A program made the translations under genes and the position numbers. The notes beneath the pieces were generated by a model. It was not told the origin of the DNA. It worked only from the letters and a program-made list of their open reading frames with translations, and ran no database searches. From positions 1 through 54,759 of IMG/VR virus record IMGVR_UViG_3300030389_001655: DNA of 54,759 bases; one strand, written 5' to 3'. Origin of the DNA: a virus. Taxonomy: Duplodnaviria; Caudoviricetes. Within the stretch, counting starts at the first letter, position 1. Each line of letters opens with the position of its first letter. Shown one piece after another: positions 8,193 through 45,552 of the stretch.

Positions 8193-9005
8193 ATGAGCCT
8201 AGGAAAACTTTTAAAAGATATAGCACCTGTTTTGATAGGAGCAACTTTAGGACCCGCTGTGGCTGGAACAGCAGTCAGTCCATTTATAAGTAGAGCAGTT
8301 GCAGGAGGCTTAACATCTAAATTAATGGGTGGAAAAACCAAAGATGCACTGAGAAATGCCCTAATTGCAGGAGTTGGTGGTGCTGCTTTTGATAGTTTTG
8401 GTGGAGGAGAGCAAGTTGTAAATCCAAATGCTGGTCAAACAATTGTTCGTGGAGCTGGAGGCGGAGGACAGGGAAGTGGAGCTTTTTTAGATAATAGAGG
8501 TGGAAATTTAGCAGCGGAGAGAATTTCAAAAAGCATTCCAACTGAAGTTGCAAATAAAGGCATTGCAGAAACCTTTAAGCCAAAAACATTTAGTGCAGAG
8601 CTTCTTAAATCTGCTGGAGTGGGTGGAGATAATTTACTTGCTCGATTACTTAACACACCTTTAGGAGAAGGCTTGACTGCTGGATTAATTGCACAATTAC
8701 TTTCTGGAGATGAAGAGGAACAAAAAAGAGAATTTGAACAAAGACCTTTTGGTGCTGGAGGACCAGGTGGCAGATTAGGTGGTATAACTTTTGCCAATCA
8801 AGGTGGAGAGATGGCATTCCCAAGACGTACAGGTGGCATAGACCCCTCTGAGGGATCTGGAACAAAAGATGATGTGCCTGCAATGCTTATGGCTGGTGAA
8901 TTTGTTTTAACTAAAGATGCTGTTAAAGGTTTAGGTGATGGTAATTCAAGAAAAGGCATACAAAGAGCTTATAATTTGATGGATGATTTGGAAGCGAGGG
9001 CATAA
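8193..9005 (+). CDS. Internal virion / ejection protein
   Basis: Gly/Ala-rich hydrophobic N-terminus; FANQGG...GSGTKDDVPAMLMAGEFVL motif of the kind seen in tape-measure and ejection proteins. Confidence 0.6.
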   Translation: MSLGKLLKDIAPVLIGATLGPAVAGTAVSPFISRAVAGGLTSKLMGGKTKDALRNALIAGVGGAAFDSFGGGEQVVNPNAGQTIVRGAGGGGQGSGAFLDNRGGNLAAERISKSIPTEVANKGIAETFKPKTFSAELLKSAGVGGDNLLARLLNTPLGEGLTAGLIAQLLSGDEEEQKREFEQRPFGAGGPGGRLGGITFANQGGEMAFPRRTGGIDPSEGSGTKDDVPAMLMAGEFVLTKDAVKGLGDGNSRKGIQRAYNLMDDLEARA

Positions 9006-9928
9006 TGGCTGTACAGACTGTAGAAAATATACAAAGATTACCCCCATTCTTAGAGGGTCTGCAAAAAAGACTATTGCAAACTGGATTTGGTGAGTTTGAT
9101 GGTGAAACTCAGACTACGCCAGGTCTACTCGATTCTCCCCTTGATTTGCCTCAATTTCAAATTGCAGGCATAGACCCTCTAAGAGAACGTGCAATAACAC
9201 TTGGAGAAAATTTAGTAGGATCTTTTAGACCATTTGTCGAAGGAGCTAGAGATCAGTCACTAGCTGGTCAACAAGCATTAACATCAGGATTACAATTTTT
9301 GCAGCCTGAAGCAATACAGCAATTTCAAAATCCGTTTCAACAACAAGTCATTGATAGAACAATGGCAGAGCTTGATAGACAGGCTGACATTAGAAGAGCT
9401 GGTGCTGATGCAGCAGCAGTAAGGTCTGGTGCTTTTGGTGGTTCAAGACAAGGTGTGCAAAGAGCTGAGACAGAAAGAGGATTGCAACAAGTTAAAGGTG
9501 ATACTTTATCAAGATTGCTTTCGCAAGGTTTTTCAAGTGCTTTACAAGCAGCACAGAATGCTGGTCGTTTATCTGGTGGTCTTGGGCAGGCTTTTGGAAC
9601 TTTAGCTGGAACTACAGGTGATATTGGAAGATTGCAACAAGCACTAGGGCAAGCTGATATATCACAACTAACTCAACTTGGTGCACTAAGACAAGGGCAA
9701 TCACAAGCGGAACTAGATGCACAAAGACAAAATTTATTACAATCAGCACAAGAACCATTTACAAGGTTGCAACTCGGACAGAACTTATTACAAGGTATGC
9801 CAAGTGCATCTATACCTTCAACATTTCAACAGGCTACATCACCTGGTGCAAATCCATTCTTGCAAGGTATTGGTGCTTATACAACATTGTCACAGATTGC
9901 ACCTTTTGGTGGTACAAAATCTGCGTAG
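9005..9928 (+). CDS. Internal virion / DNA transfer protein
   Basis: Gln-rich helical protein with NPFQQQVID and GAFGGSRQGV motifs. Confidence 0.6.
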   Translation: MAVQTVENIQRLPPFLEGLQKRLLQTGFGEFDGETQTTPGLLDSPLDLPQFQIAGIDPLRERAITLGENLVGSFRPFVEGARDQSLAGQQALTSGLQFLQPEAIQQFQNPFQQQVIDRTMAELDRQADIRRAGADAAAVRSGAFGGSRQGVQRAETERGLQQVKGDTLSRLLSQGFSSALQAAQNAGRLSGGLGQAFGTLAGTTGDIGRLQQALGQADISQLTQLGALRQGQSQAELDAQRQNLLQSAQEPFTRLQLGQNLLQGMPSASIPSTFQQATSPGANPFLQGIGAYTTLSQIAPFGGTKSA

Positions 9929-9937
9929 GGTAGGAAT

Positions 9938-11872
9938 ATGGCTCCAAAACAAACATTGTCACAAGGGTTAATAAATCAATTAGTTCCTAGATCTTCTTTA
10001 GGTAGAGATTTTACAACCAAATTAAATCAACTACGAGGTGATCAACAAGAAGCTTTAAATATTCTTGGTTTTAAAGATTACACGGGATCTTTAGGACCAA
10101 GTGATACCTTGTTAGGCAAAGGTGCAAAATCCTTAACAGAAGGTGCTTTAAATATCCCCTTTGCAGTCGGTGAACTCTTTAAAGATATATCTTTACCTTT
10201 CCAAGCTGGTGAAGCTGGTGTAACTGCTTTACTTAAATCTTTAGTAGATCCATTGCAAACAGAACGAGGTAGAAAAAAAGCTGCTGAGAAAATGGCAGTT
10301 GGAACAAGTGGTTTAGAATTAGGTTTGCCGATAGACACAACAGTTCCAAGAGGTCAATTAGGACCTAATCCAATTATTGGTCAAACACTAAAAGAAAGAG
10401 AAGATGCTTTAAGAAATTTAAGAGAAAAAAAATCTGAAATAGACGAATTTGCTATTGGCACGGGAAAAGACGAGAGTGTAAAAACAACAGAGGGTGCAGA
10501 TGTTACATCATCACCAAAATTTACTGATCCAACAGCAGAGGCAGCTCAAGAGGCTGCAGATAAAGAAGAGGCATTAGCTTCTTCTCCTGATGAAGATCTT
10601 GATTATACAGACACATACACCGAAGAAGAATTAAAGGCAGTTAATGATCCTGAAGTTAAAAAGAAAGCTGCACAAGCTGAATTATTTACTTCTGCTATGA
10701 AAGAAATAGAAGATATATATGGTGACGACAGTGAACCAAAAAAACGCAAAACTATTGATGATTATAAAGCTGATTTTGCGAGAGCTACAGGCATAGATAT
10801 ATCGGGTGAGCCTGATAATAAATCTGCTTTGATGGCATTAGGCTTATCTCTTATGCAGAACAGAGCTGGTAAAGGTTTTAATTTATCTAACATATTAGGT
10901 GAAGTTGGAGCTGCTGGTCAAGCTGCCTTACCTAAATTTGAAGAGGCTAGAAAAGAAGCAAGAGCTGCTCAAGTCGCTGCAGGTAAGTTTGCATTGCAAG
11001 AACAAAAAGCAGATCAAAAAGCTGCATTGGCTCTAGCTAAAGAAAAAAGAACTGCATTAGCAGCAGTATCTAAGGAATTTAGAGGTTATGCAAATAAACA
11101 ACAACTAGAGTATTTAAAACATAGAAACAATATGGAAATTAAGTTACTTGAGAATGATATGAAGCCTATTGATGCAAAGGGCAAAGTAACTACACAAACA
11201 CTTGAAGGTAATAATTTTCTTAAAGTAGATACAGCTTTTGTTACTGGATCAAGAAACAGAGTATTTTTAGCACCAGTGCAACAAGCAAAACAACACGCTA
11301 ATCAATATGTAAATGTATTAGAGGCAAGCAATAGTATTAATGAAGTTAAAAGCATACTTCAAGATTTAGGAAAAGCAAATGATGCAACTGCCATTGGTCT
11401 TTTGAAAGATAGAGTATTAAGTGTTCTGAAACCATTAGGCATAGGAGATACAGACTACTCAAAAGGAGTTGCTGAAATTATTGACAAAGGCACTAATCCT
11501 GAACAAAAAGTAAGGGCTATTCAAGATAGATTAATATCACAATATAAAAAGTTCTTAACAAAAGAAACAGGAAATGGTGTGTCCGAAGGAGACATCAAGA
11601 GATTGCAACAATTAATAGGAGAAATAAAAATTGGGCAGCCTTTATCTGAAAACTTAAATAGACTTGATCAACTTTCACAAATATTCGCAGCACCACAAAG
11701 AGCCATAGAGAGTCAACTTAACGCTTTTTCAAAAAGAGAAAATTATAGAAATGATGATGAATATAACAAAACTATGGCTATATTAAATAAAGCAATTCGC
11801 ACTGGAACAGATGGCACTTATAATTTAAATGTTAATGAAGATGGTGTGATTAATATAGATTTGACAAAATAA
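9938..11872 (+). CDS. Putative internal virion protein
   Basis: 644 aa helical/charged ORF between ejection-type genes. Confidence 0.5.
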   Translation: MAPKQTLSQGLINQLVPRSSLGRDFTTKLNQLRGDQQEALNILGFKDYTGSLGPSDTLLGKGAKSLTEGALNIPFAVGELFKDISLPFQAGEAGVTALLKSLVDPLQTERGRKKAAEKMAVGTSGLELGLPIDTTVPRGQLGPNPIIGQTLKEREDALRNLREKKSEIDEFAIGTGKDESVKTTEGADVTSSPKFTDPTAEAAQEAADKEEALASSPDEDLDYTDTYTEEELKAVNDPEVKKKAAQAELFTSAMKEIEDIYGDDSEPKKRKTIDDYKADFARATGIDISGEPDNKSALMALGLSLMQNRAGKGFNLSNILGEVGAAGQAALPKFEEARKEARAAQVAAGKFALQEQKADQKAALALAKEKRTALAAVSKEFRGYANKQQLEYLKHRNNMEIKLLENDMKPIDAKGKVTTQTLEGNNFLKVDTAFVTGSRNRVFLAPVQQAKQHANQYVNVLEASNSINEVKSILQDLGKANDATAIGLLKDRVLSVLKPLGIGDTDYSKGVAEIIDKGTNPEQKVRAIQDRLISQYKKFLTKETGNGVSEGDIKRLQQLIGEIKIGQPLSENLNRLDQLSQIFAAPQRAIESQLNAFSKRENYRNDDEYNKTMAILNKAIRTGTDGTYNLNVNEDGVINIDLTK

Positions 11873-14800
11873 TGGGTAAAGTTGTTTTAAATACACCACA
11901 GGGTAAAGTTAATATCACAATTGCAGGTGACAAGCCTACATTTGAAGAATCAATACAAATTAATAACATCATTAGACAATCAGGTGCTGGACAATTAGTT
12001 TCTAAAGAGGAACCAAATACTGCTGACAAGCTCGAACAATTGTTTGATACTAGCACAGGTATTAAAAGTAATGCTTTGCGTTCAGCTTTAAGTGTTGCTG
12101 AAAATAATGAAGAAGAGGATGCTATACTTCGTAAGTTTGATCTTAGTGATGATGATTTTCTTAGAGATAATAGAGGTAGATTAGCTCTCACACCTACTGG
12201 TGCAGCTAAGTTTGGACAAGAAACAGATAAAAATATACTTATAGATGAAGAAGGCTTTAGTCGTTATGACTTTTCCGATCTCGCTGGTGTAGCACCAGAA
12301 TTAGTAGCTGGTATAGGTGGAGCTATAGCTGGTCAGATAGCTATTCCAATTCCTATTTTAGGTGCTGCAATTGGAGCTGGATTAGGAGCTGGAGGAGGTC
12401 AAGCTATAGAAGAGATAGGTGAAGCAGTTGCTGGTGTACAAAAACAAGACATTGGCGAAATTGGAAAAGACGTAGTAAAAGAAGCAGCGATTGGTTTTTT
12501 TAGTGATTTAACATTTGGAGCGGCTGCTGCTACTTTTAGAGCCGTCAGAAGAGGTGTTACACCTGGTAAAGATTTAACAGCAACAGAGCTTGAGACAGCA
12601 GGCTTATCAACATCTCCACCAATAGATGAAGCTGGTAATGTAATAAAACCAAAAGACTTTGCAAAACTGTCTGCTGATGACAAGATTGCAGCAGTAAACA
12701 GGACTGTAACATTAGAAGATGGCACTGTTGTAAAAGGTGGATTTGGTGTTAAGCCTACGTTGTCAGCCATAAGAGCACCATCTCTTGTAGCAAGAATACA
12801 AGCTATTGGAGAAAAAATATTTAAAACATCAGACAGACTTAAAAATAATAATGATGTTATTAAACAAGTTATTGATGCGTACAAAGAAAAGTTTGGATTA
12901 GAAGGAGCTGACGCAGTTGATGTTGGTGATATACTTAAACGAGGTATGGTTGATAACAACGAACAATTGATAAAAGCTGAAAAAAAAGCACAAAAAGAAA
13001 TAATAGCACAAATGAAAGGTGCAGTTGGTGTTTTTAGAAGAGCTGCTGATGAAAATGGTTCTGTTGATGATGATTTGTTTGACATATTTAAAAATGCTTC
13101 AGATGAGTTCGACTCTTTTATTTCTGGTAAATTTAGAGCTGTGGACGACATATTAAGAGATGATGCTGGATTGGGCAGGCAAGGAGTTATGTACGTTAAC
13201 AATTTCGCAAATCATCTTCAAAGAATTAAAAGTGATTATGCTTCACAAATTGCTGCAAAAGATATTGATGGCAAGGCATTTGACAATATTATATCTTCAT
13301 TTGAGGCAGTTGCAGGCAAGTTAGATGAAGGTCTTAAAGAGTCAGTATCCTTTAATCAATTGTATAATTTAAGAAAAACTATAAGTGATATACGAATGGG
13401 TTCTAATGAAACTGTTCGTAAGGAGCTTGTGAACGCAAACGGCACAGGGCTGTTAGATGAAATTGATAATATGTTTAAGCAGATGGGTGATGAAAATAGT
13501 CAACTGTTTAGAGATTTGTCTGGCAGACTTGGAGATACTATTTCAGTTAATAAATTTAAAAACGCTGGTAAAACATTAAGAGCTGCACAAGCAGAATTTT
13601 TTCAAGGCAAAAGTATGTTGGAAGATTTATATGCTTCTCAATCAATTAAAAATTTAGATAAATATAGAACTGTGCCAGGCGAGCTTGATAAAGCACCAAT
13701 GAACATAGACATTTATAAAAATGTTGTTAAGTCAAATAACCCACAATTTTTACAAAGAGCTAAAGATTTTCTTAGAGAGTATGGTGGTGTTCAAGGTGGC
13801 AAAACTGGAGATGAAATTGCAGATGAGTTTACTGCGAGAGCTGCAAATCAATTTTTGGAGGATGCCATTGAAACATCAGGAATTAAAAATTTTAAAAATG
13901 TAAAAGATTTTAACGGCACAAAGTTTGCGATGGCTATAAAAGGTCTTGGCACAACTGCAAAAGAATTGTTCGGAGATAAAACGAATCAAATTTTAAAATT
14001 AGCTGATGAAATAGGTGGCGTTAAAATATCAGGATTGCAAGCTAGAAATGTTTTAGATCAATATAGAGATGCTATTGGAGGTTCCGAAAGCATGGATGGT
14101 TTGTTAAGTAAACTACAGTCTTTGTCTGAAACACAAAAAATATTAGTTAGAGAACAAAGAAATAGAATAATTAACAAGTTGCAAGACGAAGCTTTAGATT
14201 TAGATCCTTTAGAGGCTGCAAGATTTTTAGTTCAAAAACAAACTAAAAACTCTGAAATTAAGCCAATTATGAATTATTTTGCAAGAAATCAAGATGATGC
14301 TTCATTACAAAAAATCAGATCTTATTACATAAGCAGTATGATCGATGATTTTGGTGAGTCAGTTATGACAGACGGCAAATCTTTAAACGCTTTTGCAGAT
14401 AGAATATTAGCTGCTGCAGAGGATGGAAAACTACGAACAATTTTTCCAGGTGGCGTTGGTGAAAGTATGGAAAAGTTTGGTAAAATATTAAAATTTAATG
14501 CAAGGGCTGCCGAGGGTGGAGATCTTGTTGCAGCTAACATTGCAGCTTCTCCATTTCAAAACTTAGGTAAACTGGCAAAATTTACAATACTCGGTAATAG
14601 AATGTTATCACAAAGTTATTATGATGACATCATATCTCAATTTAATGGCATTACGTTGAAACAATTTAAAAAACCAGCAGACAGAGCAAAAAGTCTTGGA
14701 TCTATTATTGGCAAAGCACTTAGTCAATCAACTGGTCAAACAATCGATAATGCTATTAATGAAGCAGAAGACCAGATTGATGCAATTTTAGAAAGTTCTG

Positions 14801-15030
14801 GTGTAAAGAGTCAAATACAAAATGTTACACAACAATTAGGTCCTGCTATTAATCAAGCTAGAACAGGTATTAATCAAGTTAGAAACGTAGCTTCTGCACC
14901 TACCATTAATCCACCAGCAGCAGGAACTCAACTCGCTGGTGTAAATATTTCTAATCCAGCTAATGCTTTTTCGTTAGGTCTTAATCCTCAGAATATAGCC
15001 ATAGCACAAAGAACAAGAGGAACTCCATGA
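11872..15030 (+). CDS. Large internal virion / ejection protein
   Basis: 1052 aa, helical, glycine-zipper segment (GIGGAIAG..GAAIGAGLGAGGG); last large gene of the late operon. Confidence 0.55.
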   Translation: MGKVVLNTPQGKVNITIAGDKPTFEESIQINNIIRQSGAGQLVSKEEPNTADKLEQLFDTSTGIKSNALRSALSVAENNEEEDAILRKFDLSDDDFLRDNRGRLALTPTGAAKFGQETDKNILIDEEGFSRYDFSDLAGVAPELVAGIGGAIAGQIAIPIPILGAAIGAGLGAGGGQAIEEIGEAVAGVQKQDIGEIGKDVVKEAAIGFFSDLTFGAAAATFRAVRRGVTPGKDLTATELETAGLSTSPPIDEAGNVIKPKDFAKLSADDKIAAVNRTVTLEDGTVVKGGFGVKPTLSAIRAPSLVARIQAIGEKIFKTSDRLKNNNDVIKQVIDAYKEKFGLEGADAVDVGDILKRGMVDNNEQLIKAEKKAQKEIIAQMKGAVGVFRRAADENGSVDDDLFDIFKNASDEFDSFISGKFRAVDDILRDDAGLGRQGVMYVNNFANHLQRIKSDYASQIAAKDIDGKAFDNIISSFEAVAGKLDEGLKESVSFNQLYNLRKTISDIRMGSNETVRKELVNANGTGLLDEIDNMFKQMGDENSQLFRDLSGRLGDTISVNKFKNAGKTLRAAQAEFFQGKSMLEDLYASQSIKNLDKYRTVPGELDKAPMNIDIYKNVVKSNNPQFLQRAKDFLREYGGVQGGKTGDEIADEFTARAANQFLEDAIETSGIKNFKNVKDFNGTKFAMAIKGLGTTAKELFGDKTNQILKLADEIGGVKISGLQARNVLDQYRDAIGGSESMDGLLSKLQSLSETQKILVREQRNRIINKLQDEALDLDPLEAARFLVQKQTKNSEIKPIMNYFARNQDDASLQKIRSYYISSMIDDFGESVMTDGKSLNAFADRILAAAEDGKLRTIFPGGVGESMEKFGKILKFNARAAEGGDLVAANIAASPFQNLGKLAKFTILGNRMLSQSYYDDIISQFNGITLKQFKKPADRAKSLGSIIGKALSQSTGQTIDNAINEAEDQIDAILESSGVKSQIQNVTQQLGPAINQARTGINQVRNVASAPTINPPAAGTQLAGVNISNPANAFSLGLNPQNIAIAQRTRGTP

Positions 15031-15476
15031 ACATAGATGAGCTCAGACAAGAGATACAGAATGACGAGGGACGGGTCAACTCCGTGTATTTGGACCACCT
15101 TTCCCTGCCTACCATAGGAATTGGACATTTGATAAAAGAGTCAGACCCAGAGTATGGATTACCAGTAGGAACAGTGGTTGATGACGAAAGAGTTAACGAA
15201 TTATTTGACCAGGACATCAAAGTTACGCTGTCTGAGTGCGAACAATTATACGGAAACTTTAACGATTTACCTGAAGAAGTACAAAAAATATTGGCGAATA
15301 TGATGTTTAATTTAGGCAGACCAAGGCTTTCCAAATTCAGAAAGCTATGCAAAGCTGTAGCTGATAGAGACTGGCAAGAATGTGCTGTCCAGATGGAGGA
15401 CAGCCGCTGGCATAAACAGGTAACTAATCGTGCTAATCGTTTAATCTCTAGGATGAAGTCTGTTGATAGCACCTAA
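15027..15476 (+). CDS. Lysozyme (T4-like, GH24) endolysin
   Basis: DEG....Y.D....TIGIGH catalytic motif, NMMFNLG, SRW..Q..NRA. Confidence 0.9.
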   Translation: MNIDELRQEIQNDEGRVNSVYLDHLSLPTIGIGHLIKESDPEYGLPVGTVVDDERVNELFDQDIKVTLSECEQLYGNFNDLPEEVQKILANMMFNLGRPRLSKFRKLCKAVADRDWQECAVQMEDSRWHKQVTNRANRLISRMKSVDST

Positions 15477-16127: not shown

Positions 16128-16886
16128 TTACGACCTTTTGCCATAAATCTTTAATCTAATTCGTCTATCAGGACTGGTTTTATGATTATAAAGCTTTTCG
16201 ATCATAATTATAAAATCATCTCTACTACCCTGATTGGTTAATTTAGAAGAAAAGTTTTCTACTCTTTTCTTAAATATTGACCAGACAAAAGATTTATCAT
16301 TCATTACTGCAATCATAGCACGAATGAAATTACATTTTTTCCATTTATCAAAATAATGACTTATCCATAAAATAGATTTAGCAATCTCTTTACCTTTTTC
16401 TAAATCATGCACTTTGAAATTACCCTCACGAAATTCTTTATAATCGTGCTGGTCTAGGTAACCTTTACCATTTAACATGGCTAATGAATCAGACACGCTA
16501 AATCCATAGGTCCTAACAAACCATTCTAAGGTTACATAATGCTCTGCACCTAATTTAAAATGACTCATCATATATTCGTGCATGGTCCATTTTCTGTTAA
16601 CAGAATTTAACTTTCTTATATCTTGTAAAGTCAAACCCTTCTTTACAATATAATGAACTGGCAAACCTAAAACTTTATAAGCTTCAAGTCTGTGTTGACC
16701 ATCGCATACTTCCATATTCTCATTAACGATAATAGGTATACTTAAATCCCTTTCATCGATATGACCTGAAAGATCTTTGACGTGCTTATTCACTATATCT
16801 CTATTTCCGACTAAGTATGAAAACTTACTATAGTCAGAAGTAACGTGTATTTTATTTTTATTAATATTTTGCAATTTTTTCTCCAT
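16128..16886 (-). CDS. ParB/Srx N-terminal-domain protein
   Basis: GNR.....HV, PIIVNENMEVCDGQHRLEA motif. Confidence 0.7.
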   Translation of the reverse strand: MEKKLQNINKNKIHVTSDYSKFSYLVGNRDIVNKHVKDLSGHIDERDLSIPIIVNENMEVCDGQHRLEAYKVLGLPVHYIVKKGLTLQDIRKLNSVNRKWTMHEYMMSHFKLGAEHYVTLEWFVRTYGFSVSDSLAMLNGKGYLDQHDYKEFREGNFKVHDLEKGKEIAKSILWISHYFDKWKKCNFIRAMIAVMNDKSFVWSIFKKRVENFSSKLTNQGSRDDFIIMIEKLYNHKTSPDRRIRLKIYGKRS

Positions 16887-19495: not shown

Positions 19496-21178
19496 ATGAT
19501 TTTAAGACCATATCAAGAGATAGCAGTACAAGATGCTTCAGATGCTTTAGATAAGCATAAAAATACTATTGTTGTTGCACCAACTGGTGCTGGTAAAACT
19601 ATTATGTTATCTGCATTGATTGGCAAACGATATTCCAAAGGTAAAAAAGTTTTAGTATTACAACATAGAGATGAACTTGTAGGACAGAATGCAAGTAAGT
19701 TTAGTCGTGTTAATCCAAAAATATCAACAAGTGTAGTTGATGCTTCACAAAAGAACTGGAATGGTAGTGCAGTATTTAGCATGGTGCAGACCTTATCCAG
19801 ACCGAACAATTTAGATAATATGTCGAAAGTAGACATGATGGTCATAGATGAAAGTCATCATGCTATAGCTGACACATACATGAGAATTATAAAAAGAGTT
19901 AAGGAAGCTAACGAGTCTGTAGAAATTGTTGGCTTTACGGCTACACCTAATCGTGGTGACAGAAAAGGCTTGAAAGATATTTTCAACAACTGCTCACATC
20001 AGATTGAAATAGGCAACTTGATACGAGAAGGTTTTCTTGTGCCACCAAAAACATTTGTTGTAGATGTGGGTGTACAACAAGATTTACAAAATGTTCGTAA
20101 AACAGTTTCAGACTTCGACATGAGTGAGGTCGAGCAGATCATGAACAAACGTGCCATCAACGAGAAGATTGTAGAGGAATGGCAAGACAAAGCTGGAGAT
20201 AGAAAAACAGTTATATTTTGTAGCACAGTCGTTCATGCACAAGATTTATGTGATGAGTTTAGAAGATCACAAGTTAGAGCTGAGATTGTAACAGGTGAAA
20301 CTCCATCGGAAGAACGAAAACAAATACTTCATGACTTAGAACATGGAGATGTCCAGGTGGTTGTGAATGTTGCAGTTTTGACAGAGGGTTTTGATGCACC
20401 ACCTGTCAGTTGTATTGTGCTTACAAGACCATGTTCATACAAATCAACAATGGTCCAGATGATTGGTCGTGGACTACGAACAATAGATCCAGAGGAACAT
20501 CCTGGAATAATTAAAAAAGATTGTATCGTATTAGACTTTGGTACAAGTGTTTTGACACATGGATCGCTTGACGAGGGTGTCGATCTTGATGGTAAAGATA
20601 AATCACAATCAGGAGCTGGACCAGAGAAGATGTGTCCAAATTGTAAATGTCTCATACCATTAAATGTTCGTGTCTGTCCTATGTGTGGGCATGAAATCGA
20701 AATGCAGGCAAAAGAGTTGCTTGAAACATTTAACATGACAGAGATTGACCTTATCGATAGATCTCCATTTAGATGGATTGACTTATTCAATAATGGCAAA
20801 TGTATGTCAGCAAGTGGCTTTAATGGATTTGGTTTAGTTGCACATTTAGATGATGTTTCTGTAGCGTTAGTTAAGCGTACAAAGGGTAAACTTAGAATTG
20901 TAGGTGTAGGCACAAAAGAACAAGCTTTAGCTTCTGCTGACGATTTTTTAAGGCAAATAGAAGATAGTGACGGAGCTAAGAAAGGTAAAAGATGGTTGAA
21001 TCAAGCTATGACAGAAAGACAAAGAGAAGCTTTGGCTAGAGAAAACAAAATTGTCAGCCCATTAGATTTAAGTTTTAGTAAATACAAAGCAGCTTGCTGG
21101 TTAAATTATTTGTGGAATAAACAAGAAATAGATGGCAAAGTTTTAGATTATTACGAAGGAGATAACAATGCAGCGTAG
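19496..21178 (+). CDS. Superfamily 2 (DEAD/DEAH-like) helicase with C-terminal Zn finger
   Basis: APTGAGKT, IDESHH, TATP, QMIGRGLR, CPNC..CPMC. Confidence 0.92.
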   Translation: MILRPYQEIAVQDASDALDKHKNTIVVAPTGAGKTIMLSALIGKRYSKGKKVLVLQHRDELVGQNASKFSRVNPKISTSVVDASQKNWNGSAVFSMVQTLSRPNNLDNMSKVDMMVIDESHHAIADTYMRIIKRVKEANESVEIVGFTATPNRGDRKGLKDIFNNCSHQIEIGNLIREGFLVPPKTFVVDVGVQQDLQNVRKTVSDFDMSEVEQIMNKRAINEKIVEEWQDKAGDRKTVIFCSTVVHAQDLCDEFRRSQVRAEIVTGETPSEERKQILHDLEHGDVQVVVNVAVLTEGFDAPPVSCIVLTRPCSYKSTMVQMIGRGLRTIDPEEHPGIIKKDCIVLDFGTSVLTHGSLDEGVDLDGKDKSQSGAGPEKMCPNCKCLIPLNVRVCPMCGHEIEMQAKELLETFNMTEIDLIDRSPFRWIDLFNNGKCMSASGFNGFGLVAHLDDVSVALVKRTKGKLRIVGVGTKEQALASADDFLRQIEDSDGAKKGKRWLNQAMTERQREALARENKIVSPLDLSFSKYKAACWLNYLWNKQEIDGKVLDYYEGDNNAA

Positions 21179-21449: not shown

Positions 21450-21729
21450 CGTGGATTATCAACTCAACATGAAATCTAAAAGTAATGTGCATTATATTCG
21501 TGAGGGCAAAATCGTTATACCTATATTTTTAGAAAAACATAATGACCATGTGCTGGATCACATAGACACATACATTGAAGAAGCTATTAAAGACACAGAT
21601 GATGAGTTGTTAGGTGGCATGATAGTGGCTGAATTTTTAGGAGTTTGTCACTATTTTGATTTTATAGTAATGGAAGAAGGAGACAAGAAATGGAAGAACA
21701 TGGTATCGGGGACAGACACAATACACTAA
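21436..21729 (+). CDS. Hypothetical protein
   Basis: GTG start with GAGGG RBS; fills the operon. Confidence 0.55.
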   Translation: MARINVDYQLNMKSKSNVHYIREGKIVIPIFLEKHNDHVLDHIDTYIEEAIKDTDDELLGGMIVAEFLGVCHYFDFIVMEEGDKKWKNMVSGTDTIH

Positions 21730-21905
21730 AAGCACTGTCCGAACAATTTGCTAAAATAGGTTGGGATAAACAATTACATCATTTGACACAGGACGATGCA
21801 ATTGCCATAATTGACGCTATTCAATCAGTCAATGAAAGTAAAAGCAATGGCATTCTCGACCTTAATCCAAACACAGACATCCCAGATGATGAGATCCCGT
21901 TCTAG
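21690..21905 (+). CDS. Hypothetical protein with acidic DDEIPF tail
   Basis: AAGGAG RBS; SSB-like C-terminal DDEIPF peptide. Confidence 0.6.
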   Translation: MEEHGIGDRHNTLKALSEQFAKIGWDKQLHHLTQDDAIAIIDAIQSVNESKSNGILDLNPNTDIPDDEIPF

Positions 21906-21906
21906 T

Positions 21907-26636: not shown

Positions 26637-26637
26637 A

Positions 26638-30363: not shown

Positions 30364-30396
30364 AAAGCCCAGACCTTCACGGGTCTGGGTTTTTTT
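30364..30396 (+). terminator. Intrinsic terminator
   Basis: CCCAGACC/GGTCTGGG stem plus T-run. Confidence 0.8.
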
Positions 30397-30612: not shown

Positions 30613-30640
30613 TTGTAATGATTGCTATATAGTATATATT
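30613..30640 (+). promoter_or_regulatory. Probable amidoligase promoter with operator
   Basis: TTGTAA-N16-TATATT; GTAATGATTGC overlaps the -35; IHF-like TAAGTTATTGATT at ~30556. Confidence 0.5.
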
Positions 30641-30681
30641 AAATATTGTATTTAATTTTTAATTTTGGAAAGGAAAAAAAA

Positions 30682-32092: not shown

Positions 32093-32121
32093 TTGCACTT
32101 TTGTGCAATCAATACTATATA
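32093..32121 (+). promoter_or_regulatory. Sigma70-type promoter with operator variant
   Basis: TTGCAC-N17-TATATA; GCAATCAATAC in the spacer. Confidence 0.55.
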
Positions 32122-32141: not shown

Positions 32142-32402
32142 ATGGCAACATATAGATTCAAGCTCCCTCGTACAAGGGAGTTCAATGTCAGAAGTGACAA
32201 TCATTTAATGCAAGAGATAGCGACTTCGTTGTGGTGTAAGGGCATGGAGATGTCTTCTCTCCTTAAAAACGTAGCCAATGCCTGCTGCGACTGGAATGGC
32301 AAGGCATATCGTTACGGCACGAAGGAAGAATTAATTGCAGACATGAAAAAAAATAATATTTTAATAAACATTGACGAAAGGAAAGCCAATGAAGCGAACT
32401 GA
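32142..32402 (+). CDS. Hypothetical protein
   Basis: GAGG RBS, downstream of a promoter. Confidence 0.65.
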   Translation: MATYRFKLPRTREFNVRSDNHLMQEIATSLWCKGMEMSSLLKNVANACCDWNGKAYRYGTKEELIADMKKNNILINIDERKANEAN

Positions 32403-32790
32403 TTACGGGTATGCAGACCTGACAAGCAATGAGATTTACAAGTTTCGTAAAACTCTAGGCATGAGTCAGGCAAAATTATCCAAAAAACTAGGACTAAGCC
32501 TAAGAACTTGGTGTCATTACGAGTATGGAACGCAAAGAATGCCAGTTTCTGTGCACATGGCACTCCAATTTTTACAAAATGGGGGTGAAGAAGTAGAAAA
32601 AGCACATGAAAATATAAAAAAACATCAAGAACCACTGACAAAATACGACATGGACAGGATTACGAGGCTAAGACAGTCGATAAAAGACACTTTAACGTCA
32701 ATTAAGGACAGTTTAGACCCTATGTCAGCTAAAATCATCACACAAAGCGATAAAGAGATGGGCTTTCTGTTGTCAAAAATAAATAATTGA
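32389..32790 (+). CDS. XRE/Cro-family HTH transcriptional regulator
   Basis: FRKTLGMSQAKLSKKLGLSLRTWCHYEYG. Confidence 0.8.
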   Translation: MKRTDYGYADLTSNEIYKFRKTLGMSQAKLSKKLGLSLRTWCHYEYGTQRMPVSVHMALQFLQNGGEEVEKAHENIKKHQEPLTKYDMDRITRLRQSIKDTLTSIKDSLDPMSAKIITQSDKEMGFLLSKINN

Positions 32791-32798: not shown

Positions 32799-32831
32799 CT
32801 CTACAAGAACAAGTTTTTTGTGGAGAGATAC

Positions 32832-34904
32832 ATGGCAAACGGACCTCTTGGGGGATTTATGCCTACCCCACCATCACCAGGTCAACCACCACAGGTGAAA
32901 TTAGAGACATCTGCTGAAAGTAGGGGTGCTTTCAATAAATTTTTAGGTACTTTGCCGAGAAATGGAGCCGTGGCTCCGATTCAGACAGGGGTTGTTCCAT
33001 CCTCCACAGCTCCTGTCTCTCCAGTGACAAGTAACGTCAATATATTCCAACCACAAATGTCACAAATGGCTCCTATGGCTCCAATGCCTATGATGCCACC
33101 AGCACAACCAGTTGCGATGATGAGAGAGGGTGGAGACCCAATGGATGCTTCTTTTAGTGATTTTTCTGGTTTTGATGACCCCTCTGACCCATTTGGAGGT
33201 GGTGACAGTTTTAATGATTCAAGCGACACAAGTGATCCGTTCATTGGGGAAAGTGTAAGTTTATCTCCAGCCGAAATAGCTGGTGGCACATTAAGCACAC
33301 CAGACACTTCTCTGTTTTCTGACGATCCTGCTACAGGAGCAAATATAGGTCTTGAAAAATCAGGTGGCTTTACAACAGGCGTTGCACCTGGCTCTGGTCT
33401 TTCTGGAGGAAACAGATTTGCAACATTTTTTAATCTTCCGTTTGCACTAAGAGGTGTAGGAAGAGACTTTCAAACAAAATTGAATAGAGATCCAAACTTA
33501 ACAGTAGGTGAGTATTTTGATACATACAATCCTGGTGGTAATGCAGATAGATTGCTTGAATTTGCACAAAATACGGGAAAGTTGAGAGATGATAAACTTG
33601 ATATTGGTGATATGCCCAATATTATGAAAACACAAGCTAAGTTTGAAATAGGTTCTCCAGAGTCAAGAAACATTCCAACAGAGTTATTAAACAGAGCTGT
33701 GCAATCTGTTAATGTAAATGATCCAAAAGAAGTAAGTAATATTTTATTTGACTTTGATCCAAATCCTTTAGCTTTAACTTTAGACGATTTAAATGCACCA
33801 AAAATAGGTGTTCCTCCAATTGGAGAGCAAAGACCAGAATCAAGAGGTAACATTCCATCGTTGAATCCATTTGGAAGGGCTCGACCTGATTTGGTAACAG
33901 ACAGAGAAGATGATGTATTGTCTGAAATAGCAGAAAGAAACGAAGATAGAGCAAGATCTATAGCTGACAGAGGGTTTCCAGTAAGTGTAGATGAAATTAC
34001 AGGTAGACCAAGTATAGCACCAACTGTCGATAATTTACTAAGGTTAGGTCAAGAAGCTCAACAAAGAAGAAATTTAGAAAAAGCAACCAGACCAGATCAA
34101 GCATTAGAAACTTTAGAAGGAAGAAGAGATAGATTGCCAGATCAAGTTTTTGATATTGAAACAATTACTCCAGAAGATGACAGGTTAACAACAGTATCTC
34201 CTGATGTTTTAGCAAGGATTGGTCGTGAACAGAGAATAGATGATGCAAACACATTTAGACAAACTGTTCCCGATGCTGCCAAAATATTTGGTGGCAGACA
34301 AATCACGACAACTCCAAGAGGAATAGATCAAGAGTTATCACCAATAGTAGCTGCAGGCATAGGAGCACCAGAGGAATTTAAACAGCCTTTTCCTGATGCA
34401 GGAATAAAAGTTGGCAACTTTACCATTCCAACACTAACATCTGGGTTAAATTTAATATCTGATTTCTCAAGACAAAGAGTATTTGATGCTGTTCTTAATA
34501 AAGGAGCAACACCCGTCTATGATGGTAATACTCTAGTTGGAGCTAAGATAAATGGAGTTCTTGTTGAGGGCATGGATCCAAATGCACCTATGGACTCTGG
34601 TGATAATCAAGACCCTGTTACAAAGTTTTTGAAAAAAGCTACTGAAGACAAAAAAAAAGAAGACAAAGATGATCAGCCGCCGAATCAAATAGGTGATGTT
34701 GTAATAAGAGATCCAGAACCACCAAAACCGACAGTCGTTAAATCTACAGCTCCTGCATCAACAGCAAGCTTTACACCTGTAGGTTTTAATGTGGGTAACT
34801 TAAATGATTTGATTGCAAGAATAACAGGTGTGCCTACTCCAAGAAGAATGCAAGAAGGTGGCACAGTAGCAGCAGTGGATAGATTTTTATCTAAGGTAGC
34901 ATGA
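32832..34904 (+). CDS. Large low-complexity protein upstream of terL (probable internal virion protein)
   Basis: GGAG RBS; Pro-rich and acidic; MMREGG and MQEGG motifs; coupled to terL. Confidence 0.6.
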   Translation: MANGPLGGFMPTPPSPGQPPQVKLETSAESRGAFNKFLGTLPRNGAVAPIQTGVVPSSTAPVSPVTSNVNIFQPQMSQMAPMAPMPMMPPAQPVAMMREGGDPMDASFSDFSGFDDPSDPFGGGDSFNDSSDTSDPFIGESVSLSPAEIAGGTLSTPDTSLFSDDPATGANIGLEKSGGFTTGVAPGSGLSGGNRFATFFNLPFALRGVGRDFQTKLNRDPNLTVGEYFDTYNPGGNADRLLEFAQNTGKLRDDKLDIGDMPNIMKTQAKFEIGSPESRNIPTELLNRAVQSVNVNDPKEVSNILFDFDPNPLALTLDDLNAPKIGVPPIGEQRPESRGNIPSLNPFGRARPDLVTDREDDVLSEIAERNEDRARSIADRGFPVSVDEITGRPSIAPTVDNLLRLGQEAQQRRNLEKATRPDQALETLEGRRDRLPDQVFDIETITPEDDRLTTVSPDVLARIGREQRIDDANTFRQTVPDAAKIFGGRQITTTPRGIDQELSPIVAAGIGAPEEFKQPFPDAGIKVGNFTIPTLTSGLNLISDFSRQRVFDAVLNKGATPVYDGNTLVGAKINGVLVEGMDPNAPMDSGDNQDPVTKFLKKATEDKKKEDKDDQPPNQIGDVVIRDPEPPKPTVVKSTAPASTASFTPVGFNVGNLNDLIARITGVPTPRRMQEGGTVAAVDRFLSKVA

Positions 34905-42153: not shown

Positions 42154-42622
42154 AAAGTTATATGTGCCAGAACGGATTTTAGCACAGAAAAAAGTAAATC
42201 CGACACCAAAAGCAATATCCAAAGCTTTTGATAATAAAGAGGAGGCTAATAAAAATAGCAAAGATCCATCTCAATTAGACGTATCTGTATTAGAGAGACT
42301 ACCACAACCAACTGGATATAGAATGCTTGTCATCCCATATTATTTGTCTGAAAAGACTAAGGGAGGGATATTCATTCCAGATGCAACTCGTGATAGAGAG
42401 AGTTTTGCAACTGTGGTTGCTTATGTCGTTAAACTAGGACCTGATGCCTATAAAGATTCTGATAAATTCCCAAATGGAGCATACTGTTCTGAGAAGCAAT
42501 GGGTGCTTATGGGTAGGTATGCTGGAAATAGGTTCAAAGTGGATGGTCTTGAGTTAAGAATCATAAATGACGATAATATTATAGCAACAATACTTGACCC
42601 AGCAGATATTTCTTATGTATAG
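42146..42622 (+). CDS. groES: GroES-like co-chaperonin
   Basis: P.GYRMLV, KTKGGIFIP mobile loop, VV.LGP, RYAG, RIINDD.I.A. Confidence 0.85.
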   Translation: MTKKLYVPERILAQKKVNPTPKAISKAFDNKEEANKNSKDPSQLDVSVLERLPQPTGYRMLVIPYYLSEKTKGGIFIPDATRDRESFATVVAYVVKLGPDAYKDSDKFPNGAYCSEKQWVLMGRYAGNRFKVDGLELRIINDDNIIATILDPADISYV

Positions 42623-42630
42623 TGGAGGTA

Positions 42631-43539
42631 ATGATGAATGAAGCACAAGAAAACAAAGTAGAAGAAACTTCTAACGAAAATGAATTTGTTGTAGAAGTTG
42701 ATGAAAATCAAGAATCTACAAAAAAAGAAGTCCAACCAGAAAAACAAGAACAGACAATTGTTCGTGATGAAGAACCTGATGAGGCTGAATCATACAGTGA
42801 AAAAGTTCAAAAAAGAATAAATGCGTTAACCGCAAAGAAAAAAGCTGCAGAAGATGACATGAACAATGCTATAAAGTATGGCAAACAAGTTGAAGAAGAA
42901 AATCAACGTCTTAAAAAACAACTTGAGACATACACCAATGGCTACACAAATGAGTTTGATACAAGAGTCCAATCTCAAGAGGCTCAAGTTAAGCAATTGT
43001 TAAAGGAGGCTTATGATGCTCAAGATGTTGATAAGATTGCAGAGGCGAATTCAGCTCTTACTCAGGTCAATATTGAAAAAGAAAGACTTAGAGTCCTCAA
43101 GCAACAAAGAGAGCAAGAACAAGCAGCTCAAAAAGATGCACGACAGAGCAGTCAAAAAGAAGAAGTAAAACAACCATCAATAGAGGACAATCCAAAAATA
43201 AAAGCTTGGATTGCTAAAAATCCTTGGTATGGCAAAGATGACGAAATTGAAAAAAACTTAGCTTTAATGTTAGCTGATAAAAAAGTATCAACAATGTATG
43301 ATGCTACAGATGACAGATACTATGAAGAAATAGATAAAGAGATGGCTAAGTTGTTTCCACAAGATCAGAGCAATAGTAATGTCCAAACTGTTGCACCTGT
43401 AAATGGCAGAGCTTCTGTCAAAACTGGACGTAAACAGAGAGTGGTCTTAACTGAAAGTGAAAGACGTACTGCTGATAGACTTGGTGTGCCATACGATAAA
43501 TATGCACAACAAAAACTCAAATTGCAAAAAGGAGCATAA
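42631..43539 (+). CDS. Putative scaffolding protein
   Basis: Acidic coiled coil (YSEKVQKRI..L; W...NPWY; V.LT......A..LGV); upstream of capsid. Confidence 0.7.
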   Translation: MMNEAQENKVEETSNENEFVVEVDENQESTKKEVQPEKQEQTIVRDEEPDEAESYSEKVQKRINALTAKKKAAEDDMNNAIKYGKQVEEENQRLKKQLETYTNGYTNEFDTRVQSQEAQVKQLLKEAYDAQDVDKIAEANSALTQVNIEKERLRVLKQQREQEQAAQKDARQSSQKEEVKQPSIEDNPKIKAWIAKNPWYGKDDEIEKNLALMLADKKVSTMYDATDDRYYEEIDKEMAKLFPQDQSNSNVQTVAPVNGRASVKTGRKQRVVLTESERRTADRLGVPYDKYAQQKLKLQKGA

Positions 43540-44607: not shown

Positions 44608-44620
44608 GGGAGATTAGATT

Positions 44621-45529
44621 ATGGCTATTTCAAGAGCACAACTCGTTAAAGAGTTAGAACCTGGTCTTAACGCTTTATTCGGCATGGAATATGATCGTTA
44701 TGACAATCAGCATACTGAAATATTTGAGACAGAAACTTCAGATCGAGCATTTGAAGAAGAAGTCATGTTAAGTGGTTTTGGTAATGCACAAACTAAATCT
44801 GAAGGTGCTGGTGTAGCATTTGATGATGCAAACGAAGTGTATACTTCAAGATATACAATGGAAACAATTTCACTTGCTTTTGCTTTGACAGAAGAAGCGA
44901 TGGAAGACAATTTGTATGACCAACTTGGTAGAAGATATACAAGAGCGTTAGCAAGATCAATGTCTCACACAAAGCAAATTAAAGCTGCTGCAGTTTTAAA
45001 CAATGCGTTTGATTCAAGTTTTACTGGTGGTGATGGTAAAGAGCTTTGTGCAACAGATCATCCTTTAGGTGGTGGTGGCACATTCAGAAATGAATTTACA
45101 GTTGCTGCAGACCTTAATGAAACATCATTAGAAAATGCTCTCATTGACATTTCACAATTTGTTGATGAAAGAAACATGATTGTTGCTTTAAGAGGCATGA
45201 AGCTTATTGTTCCACCAGCATTACAATTTGTTGCTGACAGACTACTTGAGTCAACATTAAGAACAGGTACTTCTGACAATGATTTAAACGCAATCAAAAA
45301 CATGGGTATGTTACCAGATGGTTATACTATCAACCATTTCTTAACAGATACAGATGCGTTTTTTCTCAAGACAGATGCACCTAATGGTTTCAAGTATTTT
45401 GAAAGAACACCATTAAGCACAAGTATGGAAGCTGATTTCGATACTGGCAACATGAGATACAAAGCAAGAGAGCGTTATGCCTTTGGCTTTTCAGATCCAA
45501 GATGTGTCTTCGGATCACCAGGTGCATAA
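44621..45529 (+). CDS. Major capsid protein
   Basis: MAISRAQL.KELEPGLNALFG.EY, GDG..L...HP, KARERY.FG.SD.R; followed by a strong terminator. Confidence 0.88.
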   Translation: MAISRAQLVKELEPGLNALFGMEYDRYDNQHTEIFETETSDRAFEEEVMLSGFGNAQTKSEGAGVAFDDANEVYTSRYTMETISLAFALTEEAMEDNLYDQLGRRYTRALARSMSHTKQIKAAAVLNNAFDSSFTGGDGKELCATDHPLGGGGTFRNEFTVAADLNETSLENALIDISQFVDERNMIVALRGMKLIVPPALQFVADRLLESTLRTGTSDNDLNAIKNMGMLPDGYTINHFLTDTDAFFLKTDAPNGFKYFERTPLSTSMEADFDTGNMRYKARERYAFGFSDPRCVFGSPGA

Positions 45530-45552
45530 GCGAACAATTGTTCGTTTTTTAC

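Follow-up and report, generated by a model that had tools for sequence, protein, structure and literature searches.

To our knowledge, the dispersal of one short motif in many copies is known from only a few other phages. Phage P1 carries many operators for its C1 repressor dispersed over the genome; they are asymmetric and lie at promoters, and P1 is a temperate plasmid prophage. In SPP1/SF6 (pacL and pacR) and in lambda (the R sites of cosB), repeats flank or overlap the small terminase gene. The Noc, SlmA, MatP/matS and dispersed N15 centromere sets belong to cellular chromosomes or plasmid prophages and have known binders, and the sites of ParB/Noc-type systems are palindromic, partly intragenic and regionally clustered. 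In the portions of two papers drawn on here (PMC9283540, PMC6550527), the stoperators of Cluster A mycobacteriophages are described as more than 20 copies of a sharp short motif genome-wide, both at and away from promoters, to which a phage-encoded HTH repressor (L5 repressor gp71) binds, and their variants differ between clades and track repressor divergence. The same portions of the first paper (PMC9283540) describe the stoperator as a 13-bp asymmetric site, bound by a monomer, mostly found in short intergenic spaces and oriented with transcription.

Stoperators and the P1 C1 operators are the closest known systems to the motif analysed here, which was found in a 54.8-kb phage record (the window, meaning the whole stretch of DNA that was analysed). 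Like stoperators, the motif occurs at 32 loci, has clade-specific variants and lies next to early promoters, so it shows more than 20 copies of one sharp motif as dispersed operators do. Unlike stoperators, its site is a dyad, 19 of the 32 loci lie inside genes, orientation is independent of transcription, multi-copy arrays are present and the 78 ORFs scanned included no recognisable integrase. The P1 operators are alike in genome-wide dispersal for one phage repressor, but they differ in being asymmetric promoter sites of a plasmid prophage, and lysogeny has no sign here. As in the SPP1/SF6 and lambda cosB elements, repeats flank terS, and the TerS of this phage has an SF6-like HTH domain; those elements, however, are confined to the packaging region, whereas here an exact dyadic word is dispersed over 23 kb. 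The resemblance to the Noc, SlmA, matS and N15 sets lies in tens of 12-16-bp palindromes, many of them intragenic, in one region of the replicon, but the sole ParB-like gene here is dissociated from the motif.

Abundance and structure of the motif

The 9-mer AATTGTTCG had 35 strand matches at 32 loci (20 on the plus and 15 on the minus strand) when both strands of the window were searched. An earlier note had counted about 29 copies; all 29 coordinates were correct on recount, and the higher number is due to three copies that were overlooked, all on the minus strand (14434, 19803 and 49648). AATTGTTCG was the top-ranking 9-mer of the record, the next unrelated 9-mer, AAAAAAAAT, having 16 copies, while its 27 single-mismatch variants had 0-4 copies each and 29 in total. 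In 100 dinucleotide shuffles the 9-mer appeared 0.28 times on average (largest 2) and the 14-mer 0.00 times, and Markov models of orders 1-4 predicted 0.4-1.1 copies of the 9-mer. The enrichment is real under every null tried, and it is stronger than had been claimed before.

The site is a dyad. CGAACAA is followed directly by TTGTTCG, that is, two abutting 7-bp half-sites (TTGTTCG) form a 14-bp sequence with two-fold symmetry, of which AATTGTTCG is the best-conserved part. The second arm kept at least four of five bases at 9 of the 32 loci, against 0.3 expected: it was perfect at three, had four of five bases at six and was absent at 23. In relatives, the same level was reached at 12 of 38 loci in G006 and at 9 of 15 in the available part of G004. 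No second associated signal was detected, with no information outside positions -5 to +12 in 35-45 aligned sites.

We found no literature description of the 14-mer or the 9-mer as a motif of this kind. In the main paper on uncultivated HTVC023P-type genomes, the motif and repeat passages of the main text do not describe it. A nucleotide search of a phage collection with 26.7-31 kb gave no match.

Distribution of the sites

The 8-31 kb region held 29 of the 32 loci, and 22 (69%) were concentrated in the 16% of the record between 21.7 and 30.61 kb (binomial p = 5e-11). The clustering and the peak around terS noticed earlier are right, the share being slightly short of the three quarters given then. 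Many copies had also been placed inside coding sequences, and we located 19 loci there.

The leftmost site (8441-8449, plus strand) lies in the CDS 8193-9005, where it encodes TIVR; its palindrome matches at 13 of 14 positions, with a partner 9-mer at 8436. The CDS 11872-15030 carries sites at 12033-12041 (minus, LEQL, palindrome 13/14), 12960-12968 (minus, NEQL), 13964-13972 (plus, ELFG) and 14434-14442 (minus, RTI). Minus-strand sites follow in the lysozyme-like CDS 15027-15476 (15239-15247), the helicase CDS 19496-21178 (19803-19811), the ORF 21690-21905 (21740-21748) and the Cas4-like exonuclease CDS 21811-22614 (22179-22187). The primase-helicase CDS 22676-24844 contains 22989-22997 (plus), 23934-23942 (minus), 24064-24072 (minus) and 24703-24711 (plus). 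The third of these is built on CGAACAA, which was kept at this column in 5 of the 6 other genomes compared, G008 having none. The ORF 24789-25049 has a site at 24941-24949 (minus, palindrome 13/14).

The small terminase gene (Terminase_2; 27293-27805, plus strand) is flanked by sites on both sides. Upstream, the Cys-rich ORF 26750-27112 carries three plus-strand sites at 26791, 26900 and 27016 (26791-27024), whose offsets are retained in close relatives; a protein atlas gave no informative family for ORF 26750-27109 or for ORF 32820-34904. Downstream, six sites form an array (27855-28287; 27855 on the minus strand, 27922, 28006, 28101, 28195 and 28279 on the plus strand); the non-coding DNA that holds it is rich in G+C and separates the terS stop from the first early promoter. 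This sigma-70-like promoter (28354-28382, plus strand, TTGACA-17-TATATT) lies downstream of the array and an A-tract. Three further plus-strand sites at 28815, 28932 and 28990 (28815-28998) are non-coding and upstream of a promoter at 29148. A DNA contig from sequencing runs bridges 25742-29454, and an RNA run contained only small pieces of relatives.

Three loci are perfect 14-bp palindromes, and each adjoins a terminator-like hairpin, as the earlier note had seen. The first (29519-29532) lies between the terminator 29478-29502 and the start codon of ORF 29554-29787, the second (30409-30422) after the terminator 30363-30394, and the third (45531-45544) between the stop of the major head gene (45529) and the terminator 45553-45576. 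The dense region is closed by a plus-strand site at 30594-30602, which ends 10 bp before the -35 element of a promoter-like sequence (30613-30640). Beyond it there are isolated sites at 42756-42764 (plus, in CDS 42622-43539) and 49648-49656 (minus, in CDS 49218-49745, palindrome 13/14). The view that copies avoid the promoters is mostly right, but sites lie upstream of every early promoter cassette in the window and 30594 comes close to a -35 element. In the relative L061, sites were located upstream of a -35 element and just before a ribosome-binding site.

Two simple explanations of the six-site array were discarded. RNA folding of 27806-28330 gave z = -2.1 on the plus and -2.5 on the minus strand, and neither Rfam matches at the gathering threshold nor tRNAs were found (0 each); an RNA gene was dropped because the fold signal is weak and equal on both strands. 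Helical phasing was rejected because the spacing, suggestive here at 84, 95, 94 and 84 bp, differs among relatives (40-66, 44-65 and 100-170 bp).

Selection on the DNA sequence

The 74 listed CDS contained 18 matches of the 9-mer (the list was without the ORF of 21740, which holds the 19th CDS site), compared with a mean of 1.55 and a maximum of 6 in 500 synonymous-codon shuffles and a mean of 0.41 and a maximum of 3 in 500 codon-order shuffles, so that the enrichment persists under codon-aware nulls. The 19 CDS loci use all three phases and both orientations and encode differing peptides. Eight are on the strand of the gene and 11 on the opposite strand; the direction of transcription is not followed, as it is by the asymmetric stoperators.

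The 9-mer occupied 19 of the 34 positions where the encoded peptide is compatible with it. The occupancy was 17 of 23 in the 8-31 kb region versus 2 of 11 elsewhere (Fisher p = 0.0035), and the amidoligase-like gene just past the last site of the dense region had 0 of 6 compatible positions occupied. Aligned sites were identical at 28 of 30 positions in G006 (flank identity 80%, 13% expected) and at 29 of 30 in G007 (flank identity 90%, 38% expected), and at 0 of 8 in G008, which has another motif variant. The motif is under positive and purifying selection at the DNA level, regionally bounded and changing clade by clade.

Relatives and clade variants

The phage belongs to a group of uncultured marine podophages, with large terminases 55-60% identical to those of HTVC023P-type pelagiphages. 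We know of nothing about regulation in this phage group. Two scans yielded 154 related IMG/VR loci, with 1211 motif matches in 1.33 Mb. At least three core sites lay within 700 bp after terS in 57 of 59 related loci, the background being 0.17 per 700 bp. In 50 kb of 023Pt_psg01, a cultured or named relative, the motif had 0 copies.

The G001 genome had 27 copies of AATTGATCG and 5 of AATTGTTCG, with GATCG arms, and the variant in G008-10 and L131/L133 is TTGTTCG followed by G or C and then T. An identical 9-mer was kept in relatives spanning 36% to 53% G+C, which argues for a phage-encoded reader.

Proposed dispersed operators and the XRE-like candidate protein

The earlier note proposed a site for a genome-organising protein. 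Its core, a cis-acting binding site, holds on the grounds of DNA-level selection, two-fold symmetry, purifying selection and clade-specific variants, and we predict a cis-acting protein-binding site under selection. That a protein binds at the motif, which protein it is and what its binding would do are inferences. The reading we put first, tentatively, is a predicted dispersed-operator system that is read by a phage-encoded dimeric HTH protein; dyad symmetry fits a dimer and not a ring of HTH motifs. Such a system would have two parts: arrays in non-coding DNA, from terS to the first early promoter and upstream of each further early promoter cassette, and single sites written into coding sequence across 8-31 kb where the protein permits.

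The leading candidate binder is the XRE-like (lambda-repressor-like HTH) protein encoded at 32389-32790 on the plus strand, with TerS as the second candidate. The XRE-like protein might be expressed from a promoter of early type and feed back on the early region much as Cro does, and the intragenic sites might serve as roadblocks or as a reservoir, as with stoperators. The XRE-like protein was found in all motif-bearing genomes sampled. Its predicted recognition helix follows the motif class, with SLR or SHR for the TT motif, SKR for the AT variant and SER for the flank variant, and one residue separates the helix of the high-G+C TT clade from that of the AT clade. A homodimer model passed, with a score of 0.42 against 0.00 for the best of three controls; it is symmetric, with an interface of C-terminal helices, at least 90% of contacts agree between runs and partner pLDDT is at least 76. 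Of the proteins with solved structures, 20 of the 30 determined as pairs of one chain attained this mark, as did 1 of the 23 determined as single chains; for a model built from an 8-row custom alignment these counts apply only roughly.

Several observations complicate this assignment. Two clades with an identical TT motif have XRE-like proteins of only 31-33% identity, with helices SLRTWCH and SHRM[YL]CY. The L059 locus has an XRE-like homologue with an SKRMYC helix, but neither TTGATCG nor the 9-mer in 21.5 kb. The XRE gene is located outside the site-rich region, and the promoter of its operon has no motif site. This promoter has a different palindrome, TTGCACTTTTGTGCAA (32093-32108), unique in the window, which is nearly kept in G006 and was not seen in G008, G001 or G004. 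The helix variants of TerS follow the motif classes just as well as those of the XRE-like protein, and the loci holding both genes yielded no recombinant in which terS, XRE and motif were uncoupled, so the covariation of either protein with the motif is confounded by linkage and shared descent. In addition, 19 intragenic sites in one 23-kb region are hard to explain by a pure regulator.

Alternative explanations

The sites may instead be recognition boxes of TerS, although we consider this unlikely. The arrays around terS would then be an extended pac with pacL/pacR-like parts flanking the cleavage zone, and the dispersed copies would be secondary TerS-loading sites. It agrees with the position of the arrays straight after terS in nearly all relatives and with the kept offsets of the three upstream sites, and 21 of 46 left locus ends lay within 500 bp, just upstream of terS (17 were judged true contig ends), a pile-up that fits a nearby packaging cut. 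The two TT clades share NP[ST]V as their TerS HTH helix, the AT clade has NETV and the flank-variant clade NPGV, a simpler mapping to the motif than that of the XRE-like protein, and L059 lacks both this TerS family and the motif.

On the other hand, a dyad site does not suit a ring, whose HTH motifs are presented for direct repeats. The nearest solved homologue of the TerS DNA-binding domain is the small terminase of phage SF6 (E = 0.003), and the part of the SF6 work considered here describes its DNA binding as weak with little local sequence specificity. A more natural pac element is available immediately upstream of terS, namely an ACTTACC/GGTAAGT cluster with a CCCCCTATAGGGGG palindrome; it is unchanged in the AT clade, where the 9-mer changes, and a cluster of this kind also accompanies a TerS relative of 31% identity. 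L046-type and G009-type phages have an identical TerS HTH, but their requirement for AA differs. Though repeats beside terS are expected of a pac or cos region, the sites are not confined to the packaging region, and pac would predict neither sites upstream of every early promoter nor 19 CDS sites up to 19 kb away. TerS, also named in the earlier note, is therefore a possible but weakened binder.

A rather improbable explanation is that a phage-encoded dimeric protein coats a bounded domain of about 23 kb into a nucleoprotein structure. This domain would extend over the ejection-protein genes, the replication module and the early promoters, with an abrupt end at 30.6 kb. The coat might play the part that macrodomain organisers have in bacteria, or mark the genome as self, and it could protect or place the part of the genome that enters first or is packaged last and not regulate single promoters.

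There is little chance that the arrays serve as iterons at an origin of replication, where a phage initiator (for instance a terminal domain of the primase-helicase) would bind, with neighbouring A-tracts as the unwinding element. The direct-repeat arrays do adjoin long A-tracts (28322-28342 and 30523-30548), about 150 residues at either end of the primase-helicase are unassigned, and its gene carries four sites here and several in G001, G004 and G006. The array spacing of 84-95 bp here and 40-66 bp in relatives is not iteron-like, however, and the gene has no core site in G008 and only the shared CGAACAA at the conserved column in G010. Iterons would also leave unexplained the palindromes beside terminators and the sites at three to four promoter cassettes.

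Binding of a host factor, LexA or another global regulator recruited or titrated by the phage, is quite unlikely. The 14-mer fits the CGAAC-N4-GTTCG box of Gram-positive LexA, as the three perfect copies show, the early promoters look host-type, and in the portions of the literature covered the exact 14-mer came up only in two papers on actinobacterial LexA or regulons. But only 3 of 32 loci are full CGAAC-N4-GTTCG dyads; the 23 loci without a second arm are half-sites with an exact central AATT, which the LexA box does not need, and the sites as a whole are not promoter-centred. Sister clades use GATCG arms (27 versus 5 copies in G001-type phages) or other flanks (G008-type), so that the box is broken and not constant among related phages, and the identical 9-mer in phages of 36-53% G+C also disfavours a host factor. 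A scan for the 14-mer in one genome per prokaryote species found at least 120 stretches; among the matches listed they were single, scattered and spread over many phyla, and gave no host lead.

A strand-polar signal, such as a Chi-like or nicking site oriented to the genome ends or to an origin near 26 kb, is very unlikely. Strand usage flips from 4 plus and 10 minus left of 25.1 kb to 13 plus and 2 minus right of 26.7 kb (Fisher p = 0.0025), and the phage encodes a Cas4-like exonuclease, a helicase and a Sak4-like protein. Chi-like polarity was rejected, as the flip does not recur in G001 or the high-G+C clade, their upstream sites being mostly plus, and is explained by the peptides that permit the word in CDS set against same-strand non-coding arrays; dyad symmetry also points to a site that is read as double-stranded DNA.

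Centromere-like or Noc-like sites for the ParB-like protein (16128-16886; PHROG E = 1.4e-31), another proposal of the earlier note, would fit palindromic, partly intragenic and regionally clustered sites, but are hardly credible and were ruled out by a double dissociation: the gene is absent from the motif-bearing G001 and from G008, which is 100% complete and also motif-bearing (and the 40%-complete G004 record gave no match), so it is not encoded wherever the sites occur, while homologues of 28-32% identity exist in the motif-free L086 and L088, and the protein shows no Pfam ParB domain at E below 0.01.

Implications

The motif is an unusually clear case of selection on DNA, as an exact word that fills more than half of the compatible coding positions in one region. 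It survives 20% divergence of its flanks, and single-base variants replace AATTGTTCG in sister clades. With a defined site and two or three candidate binders, there is a testable pair for which the host is not required.

If the binder is a regulator, as in the dispersed-operator reading that we put first, stoperator-like control would reach beyond actinobacteriophages. If it is TerS, a small terminase would, unusually, be reading a sharply defined sequence. If the coated domain were true, the clade variants would be compatibility or immunity types among co-infecting marine phages. The group is widespread, with the 154 IMG/VR loci noted above, and the motif variants provide a marker for typing these phages in metagenomes.

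Copy number and structure of the motif

The word AATTGTTCG is the most frequent 9-mer of the record. Pattern search found 35 strand matches, representing 32 loci, against a mean of 0.28 in dinucleotide shuffles and 0.4-1.1 under Markov models of order 1-4. Its single-base variants have 0-4 copies each, so the motif is very sharp. The stretch 21.7-30.61 kb makes up 16% of the record and contains 22 of the 32 loci. An earlier note had listed about 29 copies from the sequence alone; all its coordinates were correct and every entry was right, but the copies at 14434, 19803 and 49648 had been missed.

The extended logo of the site is cgaacAATTGTTCG. Two TTGTTCG half-sites thus abut each other, and the 9-mer covers one of them together with the inner AA of its partner. 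Perfect 14-bp palindromes were present at three of the 32 loci (29519, 30409 and 45531). The second arm matched in at least four of five bases at 9 of 32 loci (0.3 expected), and likewise in the related genomes G006 (12 of 38) and G007 (10 of 34) and in part of G004 (9 of 15). No additional signal was found within 40 bp of the aligned sites.

Sites in coding sequence

Nineteen loci belonged to coding sequence, in both orientations and all three phases, and they encode the peptides IVR, EQL/EQF, ELFG, NNL/NNY, RTI or NCS. The enrichment persisted under the codon-preserving shuffle that the earlier note had suggested: 18 matches were observed in coding sequence, compared with 1.55 (maximum 6) in 500 synonymous shuffles keeping the amino-acid sequence and the codon usage of each gene constant, and 0.41 in codon-order shuffles. 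Where the word is reachable by synonymous choice in the listed genes, 19 of 34 positions carry it, with 17 of 23 occupied in 8-31 kb and 2 of 11 elsewhere (p = 0.0035). The amidoligase-like gene begins 44 bp past the last site of the dense region, and none of its six compatible positions was occupied.

Non-coding sites and neighbouring repeats

The other 13 loci are non-coding. Six sites are in the G+C-rich DNA from the terS stop to the A-tract and TTGACA-17-TATATT promoter at 28354, three are upstream of the promoter at 29148, and one ends 10 bp ahead of the -35 hexamer at 30613. The terminators at 29478-29502 and 30363-30394 are each followed by a palindrome, and a further palindrome separates the head gene from its terminator. 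The strand of the sites flips near 26 kb, which is significant in the window (p = 0.0025) and not conserved among relatives. This flip arises because sites in coding sequence take the orientation that the peptide permits, and the non-coding arrays are same-strand repeats.

Several other repeats were found in this part of the genome. GATCGGG(CT) repeats, on one strand only (10 on plus, 0 on minus; 27815-27897, 28144, 28805 and 30428-30466), share the G+C-rich spacers with the 9-mer, and in the clade using the AT variant (G001 type) the 9-mer variant and a GATCGGG-type word are fused as AATTGATCGGG. The related loci L059, L061 and G008 have TCGGA, TCGGG or TCGGAC runs between the terminator and the early-promoter A-tract. 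Early-promoter cassettes are repeated at 25181-25208, 28322-28382, 29123-29176, 29790-29812 and 30523-30640, each made of a long A-tract, TTGACA-17-TATATT and the 11-bp palindrome GTAATSATTAC in the spacer. This palindrome has seven matches with at most one mismatch (1.5 expected) and is likely the operator for a different regulator. In metagenome contigs 28342 is joined to 30608/30610, with further joints between promoter cassettes (28342-30610), which indicates that small early genes are swapped as cassettes among strains.

The window has ten copies of ACTTACC/GGTAAGT, eight of them at 27040-27242 directly upstream of terS, accompanied by the palindrome CCCCCTATAGGGGG (27035-27250). In 36 of 41 relatives, including the clade with the changed 9-mer, the 700 bp preceding terS contain four or more copies of ACTTAC/GTAAGT, and many related contigs have an end no more than 500 bp from the cluster. 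The cluster is probably the pac site or the genome terminus; alternatively, it may be an element that breaks assembly.

Genome features and relatives

The window, an entire IMG/VR virus record of 54,759 bp, is classed as linear with a CheckV completeness of 93%; no DNA polymerase was recognised in it, though primase-helicase and helicase are present. PHROG and Pfam scans of 78 ORFs revealed podophage-like gene content (TerL, portal, major head protein, tail-fibre paralogues and ejection proteins) and a replication/recombination module with Sak4-like protein, helicase, Cas4-like exonuclease and primase-helicase. The same scans recognised the small terminase TerS (27293-27805), a ParB-like protein (16128-16886, minus strand) and an XRE-like HTH protein (32389-32790). 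TerL showed 55-60% identity to Pelagibacter phages HTVC027P and HTVC023P, phage 023Pt_psg01 and phage DSL-LC04, and 19 of the 20 sequencing runs listed for part of the 26-30 kb stretch were labelled marine or seawater metagenomes.

ORF 32820-34904, upstream of TerL, encodes a conserved 694-aa protein without family match. Seven short paralogous tail-fibre-like ORFs (phrog_11355) are at both record ends (750-2007 and 52896-54129), which fits a circularly permuted assembly broken in a repeat. A 63-bp tandem repeat (48438-48559; 1.9 copies, 80% matches) runs across the end of ORF 48381-48587.

The motif is also abundant in related phages, where the earlier note had proposed to search: two IMG/VR scans, with TerL and TerS as queries, gave 154 loci of 1.33 Mb in total with 1211 matches. 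Of the 59 loci that extend 700 bp or more past terS, 57 have three or more core sites in the first 700 bp, where structural-gene DNA would predict 0.17; the two exceptions are L139 with two sites and L151 with the array 1.5 kb further on. The 9-mer is identical across relatives of 36% to 53% G+C. G001, L150, L151 and L154 use the variant AATTGATCG, with 27 copies in G001 (0.36 expected) versus 5 of AATTGTTCG. Genomes of L046 type keep AATTGTTCG with G or C as the next base, and G008-10, L131 and L133 retain only (A)TTGTTCG, then G or C, then T. The system was not found in the more distant relatives L059, L086, L088 and 023Pt_psg01.

In G006, 28 of 30 aligned sites were identical at a flank identity of 80% (13% expected), and 29 of 30 were identical in G007, versus 0 of 8 in G008, which has the other variant. 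These alignments indicate that the sites are under purifying selection within a clade. In the primase-helicase gene the alignment columns of the sites differ between clades, which means that sites are gained and lost.

Candidate binding proteins

Iterative searches in all fetched loci showed that motif-bearing genomes have in common TerS, gamma-glutamyl cyclotransferase-like, amidoligase-like, 86-aa, XRE-like and 694-aa proteins and primase-helicase. The gamma-glutamyl cyclotransferase-like gene (29845-30348) and the Amidoligase_2-like gene (30646-31878) occurred in every motif-bearing relative sampled. Two of these, TerS and the XRE-like protein, contain HTH motifs, and the recognition helix predicted for each changes with the motif class. 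With the motif of the window (TT), the TerS helix is NP[ST]V in both G+C clades, and the XRE-like helix is SLRTWCH in the low-G+C and SHRM[YL]CY in the high-G+C clade; with the AT variant they are NETV and SKRMYCY, and with the flank variant (G008 type) NPGV and SERGYRC. No genome that uncouples the two genes was seen among the loci containing both, so covariation cannot choose between the two proteins.

The XRE-like protein has a lambda-repressor-like HTH, and its model is a symmetric homodimer joined by the C-terminal helices, with a score of 0.42 against 0.00 for the best of three controls, contact agreement between runs of at least 90% and pLDDT of at least 76. Of proteins solved as one-chain pairs, 20 of 30 reached this mark, as did 1 of 23 solved as single chains; these counts hold only roughly here because a custom 8-row alignment was used as input. 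Its gene has an early-type promoter, and 9-mer sites are at early promoters in the window and in L061. Against it, two dissimilar helices go with the one TT motif, and L059 has a homologue without the motif. No 9-mer site was found at the gene's own promoter. A perfect palindrome unique in the window, TTGCACTTTTGTGCAA (32093-32108), overlaps the -35 hexamer of the 86-aa/XRE-like operon promoter; it is nearly kept in G006 and was not seen in G008, G001 and G004.

TerS is also a candidate reader of the 9-mer, since its recognition helix varies with the motif class and a single helix type goes with both TT clades. However, the site is a dyad, and TerS has directly upstream of its own gene the ACTTACC/GGTAAGT cluster and CCCCCTATAGGGGG, which the AT clade keeps as they are; a cluster of this kind also accompanies a TerS relative at 31% identity. 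The helices of L046 and G009 are identical, yet their motif flanks differ. The nearest solved DNA-binding domain, that of the phage SF6 small terminase, reportedly binds with little local sequence specificity.

The ParB-like protein, which the earlier note had also named, is excluded by double dissociation, as it is absent from motif-bearing G001 and G008 (nor was it seen in the G004 record, which is 40% complete) and present in L086 and L088, both without the motif.

Possible function of the sites

We tentatively propose, at somewhat less than an even chance, that the sites are dispersed operators read by a dimeric HTH protein which the phage encodes. The arrays and palindromes around the early-promoter cassettes would either set early transcription or shut it off, and the intragenic sites would be roadblocks or a reservoir. 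Among the literature matches listed, the exact 14-mer occurred only in two papers on actinobacterial LexA or regulons; for the 9-mer, none of the 20 papers listed out of 122 dealt with phage. The main text of the principal paper on uncultivated HTVC023P-type genomes does not treat palindromes, promoters or such repeats.

Among described systems, the stoperator network of Cluster A mycobacteriophages comes closest. In it, more than 20 13-mers are bound by a monomeric repressor (PMC9283540), with a motif that varies along with the repressor (PMC9283540, PMC6550527). In contrast, the phage site in the window is a dyad, and its copies do not follow the direction of transcription and are confined to one genome region. 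This regional bound is not accounted for by a pure regulator and leaves a smaller probability to a structural role of the sites, marking a domain of the genome.
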